Shown here piece by piece: positions 20,444 through 20,684 of a DNA stretch of 64,000 bases. The stretch comes from Candidatus Nomurabacteria bacterium (GTDB lineage: Bacteria; Patescibacteriota; Minisyncoccia; Phycocordibacterales; JACOZG01). The stretch covers positions 188,059-252,058 of the forward strand of contig JADLCI010000007.1 in assembly GCA_020847275.1 (NCBI GenBank), given 5' to 3'. How positions within the stretch are numbered: the first letter of the stretch is position 1; each line of letters starts with the position of its first letter. Made by a program: the position numbers and the translations under genes. Below the pieces are notes generated by a model. The model did no database searches. It was not told where the DNA came from and saw only the letters and a list, made by a program, of their open reading frames with translations.

Positions 20444-20684
20444 GGCCAAAACTCCAATCAGTATTGGTGGCGTGAGGGCTTAGGGCTGATCTTGTTTCTT
20501 GAAGTAAATCAGGCCAAAACTCCAATCAGTATTGGTGGTGTGGGGGCTCGCTTGCTGGCAATTTACCTGACCGGAGATAAGGCCAAAACTTCAATCAGTA
20601 TTGGTGGTGTGGGGGCTAGAATGCTGGTGATAAAACCTTTAACGATCAGGCCAAAACTCCAATCAGTATTGGTGGTGTGGGGGC
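20444..20684 (+). CRISPR. CRISPR array of 4 direct repeats (36 nt) and 3 spacers (32, 33, 32 nt), plus a decayed fifth repeat fragment at 20716-20733
   Basis: Consensus repeat ggccaaaactccaatcagtattggtggtgtgggggc. Repeats at 20444, 20512, 20581 and 20649; R1 has 2 mismatches and R3 has 1. The repeat has an internal ccaat/attgg hairpin. Spacers are ttagggctgatcttgtttcttgaagtaaatca, tcgcttgctggcaatttacctgaccggagataa and tagaatgctggtgataaaacctttaacgatca. Confidence 0.75.

Follow-up and report, generated by a model that had tools for sequence, protein, structure and literature searches.

A window of 64,000 nt from the chromosome of a Candidatus Nomurabacteria bacterium (GenBank contig JADLCI010000007.1, positions 188,059 to 252,058) contains a small CRISPR array, the second spacer of which matches the nearby gene rnr, encoding RNase R. 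The array accompanies a gene for a Cas12f-like effector that would bind DNA without cutting it. Based on the sequence, it is established that spacer 2 is genuine and self-derived, and that selection maintains the effector together with its RNA module. The leading explanation, held with somewhat less than even confidence, is that the spacer is a tolerated accident, a self-spacer that may direct binding and that has no selected role. Expression of the RNAs, their loading, the compatibility of the target-adjacent motif (TAM), binding, and any effect on rnr are inferred.

Spacer 2 matches rnr

The array consists of four 36-nt repeats (GGCCAAAACTCCAATCAGTATTGGTGGTGTGGGGGC) and three spacers (Table 1). 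A repeat search of the window and direct reading agree that positions 20549-20580 are the reverse complement of positions 17352-17383 within rnr at 32 out of 32 nt (100 % complementary). The chance expectation of such a match in 64 kb, both strands considered, is approximately 7e-15 (128,000 × 4^-32). A preliminary description of this DNA, made from the letters alone, had given the match as 32 of 33 nt, had equated the plus-strand spacer with the sense strand of rnr, and had quoted the flanks on the rnr coding strand; the match was borne out, the strand assignment is correct, and re-reading confirmed the context as 5′-GGTTCAC[protospacer]ACCGAGC-3′. The protospacer starts at nucleotide 1512 of rnr, codon 504 of 640 and 1.5 kb from the gene start. 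The GGTTCAC flank is also present at the corresponding rnr site of a sister species.

The sole unmatched base of spacer 2 is the T at 20548. A T directly follows repeats R1, R2, and R3, with none after R4, and the repeats of the related loci L003 and L005 are likewise followed by a T, therefore the T at 20548 may be part of the repeat rather than of the spacer, in which case the match would be 32 out of 32. In all three spacers of the window the 5′ base is T, and the 3′ ends before the next repeat conform to A-[TA]-[CA]-A (ATCA, ATAA, and ATCA). Similar ends, AGATCA and AGATAA, are seen in L003 on the opposite side of the repeat; these observations bear on the repeat boundaries or on an acquisition motif.

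It is highly improbable that the match is an artefact of a chimeric contig, or is incidental, the spacer coming from a mobile element with a fragment of rnr. Independent assemblies of the sister species, whose effector is 71 % identical to that of the window, contain both flanks of the locus: contigs L014 (from SRR22077680) and L012 (from SRR22388164) carry rnr, rpsP, the KH-domain gene (KH), and the promoter of the RNA module, and contig L001 (from SRR22077680) carries cas1, the effector gene, trmD, and rpoB. The layout of the segment between these flanks is homologous to that of three other loci, rnr and the repeat share no sequence able to join them in assembly, and the 32 positions identical to the resident gene include synonymous positions that differ in the sister species. 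Searches of IMG/VR, of phages in INPHARED, and of plasmids in PLSDB did not find the protospacer. A chimeric contig and a mobile-element origin, both raised in the preliminary description as ways in which the match might mislead, are rejected on this evidence. In favour of an artefact, the segment with the array and its presumed leader RNA lies itself outside the independent assemblies, the sister contigs breaking on both sides of it. L012 and L014 break at the same base (position 1), 59 nt past the KH stop codon, and L001 ends (position 12641) inside the cas1 terminator hairpin, leaving the segment outside all three contigs; strain heterogeneity, or graph breaks at the repeats or the hairpin, may have caused this. 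Spacers 1 and 3 of the window have no match in IMG/VR.

The effector and its small neighbour

The effector matches no Pfam or NCBIfam family, and phmmer found no match for it in the PDB. It does match the PADLOC Cas12f profile PDLC01689 (2.5e-10). An exhaustive HMMER search gave a family of 56 representatives of approximately 600 aa, 34 of which were aligned, and 32 of these 34 match the same profile, at up to 1e-101. An AlphaFold2 model built with the 34 family members is of high predicted quality (predicted local distance difference test score 89.8, predicted template modelling score 0.84), and its top PDB matches in Foldseek are AsCas12f (E 1.5e-8), Un1Cas12f1, and CnCas12f1, with Cas12m2 weaker (E 1e-4). 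GTDB genomes and JGI metagenomes, scanned with protein patterns, gave no relatives of the effector, and a second search of proteins by word index yielded nothing beyond the same two proteins.

A profile of the C-terminal half of the family aligns to Cas12a and Cas12e over RuvC-I and RuvC-II, which fixes the catalytic positions. In RuvC motif I, the canonical Asp is replaced in the family by His (GIHFG, aligned to the RuvC-I Asp of AsCas12a) and in the window effector by Leu419. In motif II, the canonical Glu corresponds to the first Glu of LALEE in the family and to Gly494 in the effector. In motif III, the canonical Asp is, by motif comparison, the second Asp of DDHQA in the family and is retained as Asp557. 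The zinc ribbon (CxxC...CxxC), present in about two-thirds of the family, has been deleted from the effector; it is missing also from P0002, P0003, and nine other family members. With the Asp of RuvC-I and the Glu of RuvC-II replaced and the zinc ribbon lost, no DNA cleavage is expected. The preliminary description was right about the degenerate RuvC domain and the missing zinc finger, although the D-K-Q that it took for the substituted site contains Asp557, the one catalytic position kept. Its suggestion of binding without cleavage is reasonable, and the case for a dead nuclease is stronger than it had supposed, resting on Leu419 and Gly494.

The Gly of RuvC-II is common to the effector and to relatives of 71, 44, and 39 % identity, therefore the catalytic loss is old and predates the spacer. 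Compared with the 71 % identical relative, the ratio of nonsynonymous to synonymous substitution rates (dN/dS) of the effector is 0.13, with dS saturated (~1.4); against the same relative, trmD has 0.05 and rpoB 0.01. Judged by these ratios and its residues, the effector is a natural non-catalytic Cas12f-like protein under purifying selection.

The change of the RuvC-I Asp to His is found in nearly all of the aligned family (including P0008 and P0011-P0017), and it is invariant in the 12 members with a zinc ribbon, giving an H-E-D triad. Cas12m2, which does not cut, has a similar triad, H-D-D, so the family as a whole may consist of binders rather than cutters.

Upstream of the effector gene, a conserved helical open reading frame (ORF) of 72 aa overlaps the effector start by 8 nt (TTGGCTAG), which suggests that the two are translationally coupled. 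This ORF contains no Pfam domain. Homologues of 62-83 aa, also predicted to be helical, are present upstream of the effector in L001, L002, and L003/L004, and dN/dS against L001 is 0.44. The product could be a partner subunit of the dead effector.

The RNA module

Approximately 370 nt of non-coding DNA separate the array from the KH stop codon. Just past this stop codon is a promoter of the form TTGACA-N17/18-TAnnnT, with a TG at 20095-20096 that gives an extended -10 element; it is conserved in the sister species (L012/L014), and an equivalent promoter lies at the far end of the corresponding region in L005 and L007. The putative trans-activating CRISPR RNA (tracrRNA) or leader that follows contains an anti-repeat, ACCACCAATCTATTTTGGCC, at 20311-20331, complementary in silico to repeat bases 1-8 and 21-29. 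Against shuffled controls, the non-coding region has fold z-scores of -2.84 on the plus strand and -0.23 on the minus strand, and the array strand likewise has the lower scores in L005 (-5.03 versus -2.01) and L007 (-4.92 versus -3.91). No Rfam family matched the tracrRNA region, and RNAduplex modelling of pairing between repeat and tracrRNA gave a clear two-part anti-repeat in L007 only. The layout of tracrRNA and array is homologous in L003, L005, and L007. An apparent inversion of the module in L003 was rejected, because the other arm of a conserved hairpin had been matched.

An intrinsic terminator separates the array from cas1. A terminator scan listed its hairpin (20763-20786) only as a weak minus-strand site, and the plus-strand T-run was read from the sequence. 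Terminator-like hairpins with a T-run on the array strand are present in five loci (the window, L001, L003, L005, and L007). Because the promoter, the T-run of the terminator, and the fold z-scores all point in the same direction, the evidence agrees that tracrRNA and array would be transcribed on the plus strand, antisense to the effector. The resulting order of scaffold, repeat, and spacer is that of type V systems.

Guide 2 would therefore have the rnr sense sequence and would pair with the template DNA strand, never with the mRNA. Action on rnr mRNA was considered and rejected, based on the promoter, terminator, and fold evidence for a sense-sequence guide. In CRISPR interference (CRISPRi) with dCas12a, a type V complex on the template strand that is met by RNA polymerase from the side of the protospacer-adjacent motif (PAM) is in the elongation-blocking orientation. 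By this analogy, the geometry of guide and target here is expected to block RNA polymerase.

It is unlikely that the locus is an inert fossil in which the RNAs are unmade or unloaded, or the flank is non-permissive, so that spacer 2 is a neutral relic of one mis-acquisition. Such a relic would fit with GGTTCAC, which does not correspond to the T-rich or C-rich PAMs said to be recognised by Cas12f-type effectors, adjoining the protospacer; with the loss of Cas1 function described below; with the mutated repeats R1 and R3; and with an rnr gene that has neither escape mutations nor a sign of cost. It does not fit with the dN/dS of the effector, the conservation of the small partner ORF, the conserved promoter and terminator, or a tracrRNA region that is structured on the expected strand in three loci, all of which argue that the ribonucleoprotein is made and used. 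The preliminary description had also offered a dead system as the reason for tolerance. As a whole the system is not dead, given the selection on the effector and its conserved promoter, tracrRNA, and terminator; it is Cas1 that is dead.

Loss of adaptation and origin of spacer 2

The Cas1 remnant has an in-frame deletion of about 65-70 residues, defined by tblastn against the L001 Cas1, that removed the catalytic His/Asp stretch (GLLHSD...YDLMEIFR in the relative). In relatives, Cas1 (257-263 aa) keeps the catalytic Glu, His, and Asp/Glu motifs; the N-terminal domain is missing across the family, including the window copy. The retained blocks still have a dN/dS of ~0.1, so the catalytic deletion is probably recent. 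Neither Cas2 nor Cas4 was found in the window, nor beside cas1 wherever a cas1 gene or remnant is readable in the related loci. The ORF at 16028-16393 on the minus strand, downstream of rnr, was considered as Cas2 and rejected, having weak matches only (PADLOC 7e-4, Pfam 0.0095), its own promoter, and conservation in L012/L014. The Cas2-like-scoring ORF, of about 107 aa, has a sister counterpart at 3822-4145 in L012, and the resemblance is judged to be spurious or remote. With this deletion, adaptation is now dead and the array is frozen.

Erosion of Cas1 has occurred independently in at least four lineages: as a C-terminal stub in L003/L004 (L003 3620-3860), a 90-aa remnant in L005 (11830-12295), a pseudogene in L011 (11800-12045), and the deletion in the window (20795-21358). 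The effector, the RNA region, and arrays of one to five spacers persist in the Cas1-eroded loci.

The rnr gene of the sister species has 84 % nucleotide identity to that of the window, with dS ~1.2, and its version of the target site (CGCCTGCTTGCAATCTATTTGACAGGTAATAA) differs at 8 out of 32 positions, synonymous ones included. Since the spacer matches its own gene at 32 out of 32, it was most likely taken from the resident rnr after the species split. The rnr gene itself is strongly conserved (dN/dS 0.026 against L012). Reportedly, acquisition in the type I-E system of E. coli has a hotspot near the array. As the catalytic loss in the effector came long before spacer 2, there would have been no lethal autoimmunity to escape. 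In L007 and L011 the terminal repeat farthest from the promoter is degenerate, which suggests that new spacers enter promoter-proximally; if they do, spacer 1 was acquired after the rnr spacer.

Tolerated accident or regulator

In the proposed sequence of events, the promoter beside KH would drive a plus-strand transcript comprising the tracrRNA of about 330 nt with its anti-repeat, the three-spacer array, and the terminator. The repeat-spacer units would pair with the tracrRNA and load the 586-aa protein, and at codons 505-515 of rnr guide 2 would pair with the template DNA strand only. Lacking the catalytic residues of RuvC-I and RuvC-II as well as the zinc ribbon, the protein would form an R-loop and would not cleave, leading at most to a partial roadblock for RNA polymerase on the TAM-proximal side, with less full-length rnr transcript and less of the downstream yggU-like gene. 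Once the lineage had separated from the sister species, and with the short Cas1 still in working order, spacer 2 would have been picked up accidentally from DNA near the array; it would have persisted because a non-cutting effector makes self-targeting non-lethal. Cas1 would then have lost its catalytic segment, freezing the array. Self-targeting would thus be tolerated because nothing is cleaved and not because the whole system has decayed. There is precedent in Cas12m2, a non-cutting type V effector that acts by binding (PMC10442227).

Several points weigh against an accident without a role. Binding at rnr would hinge on whether the candidate flank GGTTCAC serves as a TAM. One spacer in three is a self-spacer with a perfect match 3 kb away, and this, with a selected non-cutting effector and a frozen array, has the look of a domesticated regulator. 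Guides that match host genes have been predicted for a CRISPR-associated dCas12f cluster (PMC13472631). The truncated Cas1 could still have a role, its retained blocks having a dN/dS of ~0.1.

Less probable than a tolerated accident, but to be taken seriously, is an evolved natural CRISPRi, which the preliminary description had proposed as a tuning of rnr expression and in which the dead effector and a fixed guide 2 have been selected as a roadblock that tunes RNase R and the yggU-like gene, with spacers 1 and 3 as further regulatory or anti-mobile-element guides. Several features are in keeping with this. Although it has long been non-catalytic, the effector is subject to purifying selection; adaptation, in contrast, is dead, and only a minimal array is left. 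Across the family, Cas1 has been eroded independently while the effector, the tracrRNA, and short arrays were kept (L003, L005, and L011). Arrays are identical in different samples, L007 with L008, and L003 and L004 share spacer 1. Guide 2 would pair with the template strand, with the TAM upstream, which is the orientation effective in CRISPRi with dCas12a. Its target lies in cis at a distance of 3 kb, as targets of TldR and dCas12f are near their loci, and the guides predicted for CRISPR-associated dCas12f are directed at efflux-pump promoters (PMC13472631). In addition, a distant member of the family, L011, is in the same nusB-rnc-smc-rnr-rpsP-KH-trmD neighbourhood.

However, the target of such a repressor would be at codon 504 of 640, neither a promoter nor the 5′ end. 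None of ten other spacers (spacers 1 and 3 of the window and those of four related loci) matches sequence around its own locus, a weak negative as only 3-22 kb is available for each related locus. The rnr spacer is seen in the window only, the sister array falling in the assembly gap; a perfect match is explained equally by recent acquisition; and purifying selection on the retained Cas1 blocks suggests that the locus was acquiring spacers until recently. Possible, although clearly short of likely, is a domesticated device of the candidate phyla radiation (CPR), consisting of the dead effector, its small partner, and the frozen array, with an ORF-internal R-loop that attenuates RNase R. That such a device evolved from an adaptive immune locus and has been caught just as Cas1 is being lost is possible to the same degree.

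Locus context

The 64 kb of the window is core chromosome, containing pheS, gyrB, dnaE, rnhB, nusB, rnc, smc, rnr, rpsP, KH, trmD, rpoB, rpoC, dnaG, rpoD, alaS, and tRNA synthetase genes. The CRISPR locus lies between KH and trmD. Reading from trmD, the minus strand carries the 72-aa ORF, the effector gene, and the Cas1 fragment, followed by the array, the non-coding DNA, and the KH stop codon. In L013, which has an RNase R 76 % identical, KH directly adjoins trmD, therefore the CRISPR locus is an insertion at this site. The G+C content of the effector gene is 53.8 %, compared with 45.5 % for the window. On its gene content and surroundings, the locus is a chromosomal, vertically inherited, degenerate type V-F-like CRISPR system.

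Downstream of rnr, the start of the YggU-like ORF overlaps the rnr stop codon (TAATG), so the two genes are probably co-transcribed and any roadblock in rnr would therefore lower expression of the YggU-like gene too. On the rnr strand, a strong 13-bp hairpin followed by TTTTTTT (18921-18952, minus strand) precedes the start codon of rnr by approximately 20 nt and could serve either to terminate an upstream unit or, as part of the leader, to attenuate rnr. Parcubacteria/Patescibacteria are the source of the RNase R sequences closest to that of the window. In L011 (Logan ERR3478686), the effector gene (10001-11743) encodes a protein 29 % identical to that of the window, with the RuvC-II Glu retained, and rnr is at 2840-4759; the effector gene lies beyond nusB and not between KH and trmD. 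The single visible spacer of L011 has no match in this 12-kb locus.

Table 1. Features of the self-targeting CRISPR locus and of rnr (window positions unless a contig is named)
Feature	Position	Strand	Details
DUF167/YggU-like ORF, 77 aa	~16739-16972	-	Downstream of rnr, overlaps rnr stop
rnr (RNase R, 640 aa)	16973-18895	-	Intact; Pfam RNB 8.6e-114
Protospacer in rnr	17352-17383	-	ORF nucleotides 1512-1543, codons 505-515, peptide RLLAIYLTGDK
Candidate TAM/PAM side, 5′-GGTTCAC-3′	17384-17390	- (rnr coding strand)	Directly 5′ of protospacer, upstream with respect to rnr transcription
Sigma-70-type promoter of tracrRNA-array	20074-20103	+	TTGACA 20074-20079, 18 nt, TAGGCT 20098-20103
Putative tracrRNA/leader, ~330 nt	20110-20443	+	Structured; layout aligns with homologous loci
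CRISPR mini-array	20444-20684	+	Four 36-nt repeats, three spacers of 32-33 nt
Repeat R1	20444-20479	+	2 mismatches
Spacer 1	20480-20511	+	
Repeat R2	20512-20547	+	
Spacer 2 (self-targeting)	20548-20580	+	20549-20580 is rnr coding-strand sequence
Repeat R3	20581-20616	+	1 mismatch
Spacer 3	20617-20648	+	
Repeat R4	20649-20684	+	
Intrinsic terminator	20763-20793	+	Hairpin 20763-20786, TTTTTTT 20787-20793; between array and cas1
Cas1 remnant, 187 aa	20795-21358	-	Pfam Cas1 1.2e-16, profile positions 73-194 only
Cas12f-like effector, 586 aa, predicted nuclease-dead	21436-23196	-	TTG start; PADLOC Cas12f, AlphaFold2 model, Foldseek
Conserved helical ORF, 72 aa	23189-23407	-	End overlaps effector start
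Counterpart of 72-aa ORF in L001	9790-10023		
Counterpart of 72-aa ORF in L002	1314-1502		
Counterpart of 72-aa ORF in L003	1464-1715		

Significance

Natural nuclease-dead RNA-guided binders that regulate their hosts have been recognised only in the last few years, as TldR, dCas12f-sigmaE, and Cas12m as a binder, and very few of them keep a true CRISPR array. The locus in the window is a possible intermediate, with an effector long dead but selected, a Cas1 inactivated, probably recently, a tiny static array, and a guide to a neighbouring gene of RNA decay. Should the guide be functional, this would be a natural ORF-internal CRISPRi in a minimal-genome organism, and the effector would be a programmable DNA binder of compact size (586 aa) for which the extent of the guide scaffold has already been defined. 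Should it not be functional, the locus would still show that binding-only effectors lift the autoimmunity barrier to self-derived spacers, which is a precondition for the evolution of such regulators.

Comparison with known systems

The locus resembles type V-F systems in the fold of its effector, the PADLOC profile matched, the small size of the effector, the long tracrRNA with an anti-repeat, and the 36-nt repeats. However, canonical Cas12f/Cas14 cuts DNA, its RuvC site being D-E-D and a zinc-ribbon TNB domain lying between RuvC-II and RuvC-III, and the window effector differs from it on both catalytic counts. Canonical type V-F loci normally have cas1, cas2, cas4, and longer arrays directed against mobile elements, compared with a Cas1 remnant and three spacers here. 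By fold, profile, and RNA layout, the effector is a member of the Cas12f assemblage; functionally it would come close to Cas12m, TldR, and CRISPR-associated dCas12f.

Accidental self-targeting spacers are reportedly a form of CRISPR autoimmunity. The single perfect self-spacer and the degenerate cas genes are like classical autoimmunity, although there degeneration follows a lethal self-spacer, whereas here the effector would have been non-cutting long before the spacer. A homing spacer of the kind used by CRISPR-associated transposons (type V-K, Cas12k) was rejected; no Tn7-like tnsB, tnsC, or tniQ is present and the neighbours are housekeeping genes only, so that the analogy to Cas12k drawn in the preliminary description does not hold. 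According to a census, catalytic sites are also altered in large branches of Cas12f (PMC10691335).

Cas12m (type V-M; Wu et al., 2022; Omura et al., 2023, PMC10442227; PMC11013384) is alike in its length of approximately 600 aa and in its non-canonical RuvC triad, and it binds double-stranded DNA without cutting and silences by roadblock (PMC10442227; PMC11013384). His at RuvC motif I is the consensus of the wider family described here (H-E-D) and is found in Cas12m2 (H-D-D); the window effector itself has lost even the His and the Glu (Leu419 and Gly494). Cas12m works with a self-processed CRISPR RNA alone, whereas the window locus has an anti-repeat and a structured tracrRNA-like region of ~330 nt, and by Foldseek the window effector is closer to Cas12f than to Cas12m2. 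Cas12m is documented in anti-plasmid and anti-phage defence, without self-targets, in contrast to spacer 2.

TldR (Wiegand et al., 2024; 10.1101/2023.11.30.569447) is similar as a domesticated nuclease-dead protein of the TnpB/Cas12 lineage with a fixed guide to a nearby host gene, which it represses by binding DNA. It is, however, a direct descendant of TnpB, its single guide is omega-RNA-like, and array, tracrRNA, and Cas1 are all absent, whereas the window has an array and a Cas1 remnant. The targets of TldR are promoters (fliC and oppA) and its function was shown experimentally; the target in the window is ORF-internal.

The dCas12f cluster (Hoffmann et al., Nature 2026, PMC13472631, Extended Data Fig. 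1a,b) has in common with the window a disabled RuvC beside a CRISPR array, a structured guide scaffold on the upstream side, and a match of one guide to a host chromosomal gene. Its proposed role is transcriptional repression by binding, and the published example, from a metagenome-assembled genome of Chitinophagaceae (Bacteroidota), targets the promoter of a resistance-nodulation-division (RND) efflux cassette and has a C-terminal truncation (PMC13472631). Compared with it by description, the window has a CPR host (Parcubacteria/'Nomurabacteria'), a target deep in an ORF with no promoter match, Leu and Gly substitutions together with a zinc ribbon that has been excised, the remnant of Cas1, and the conserved ORF of 72 aa. 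What sets the present locus apart is the CPR host, the tracrRNA-type scaffold, the Cas1 remnant, the 72-aa partner ORF, and an ORF-internal target in a gene of RNA decay.

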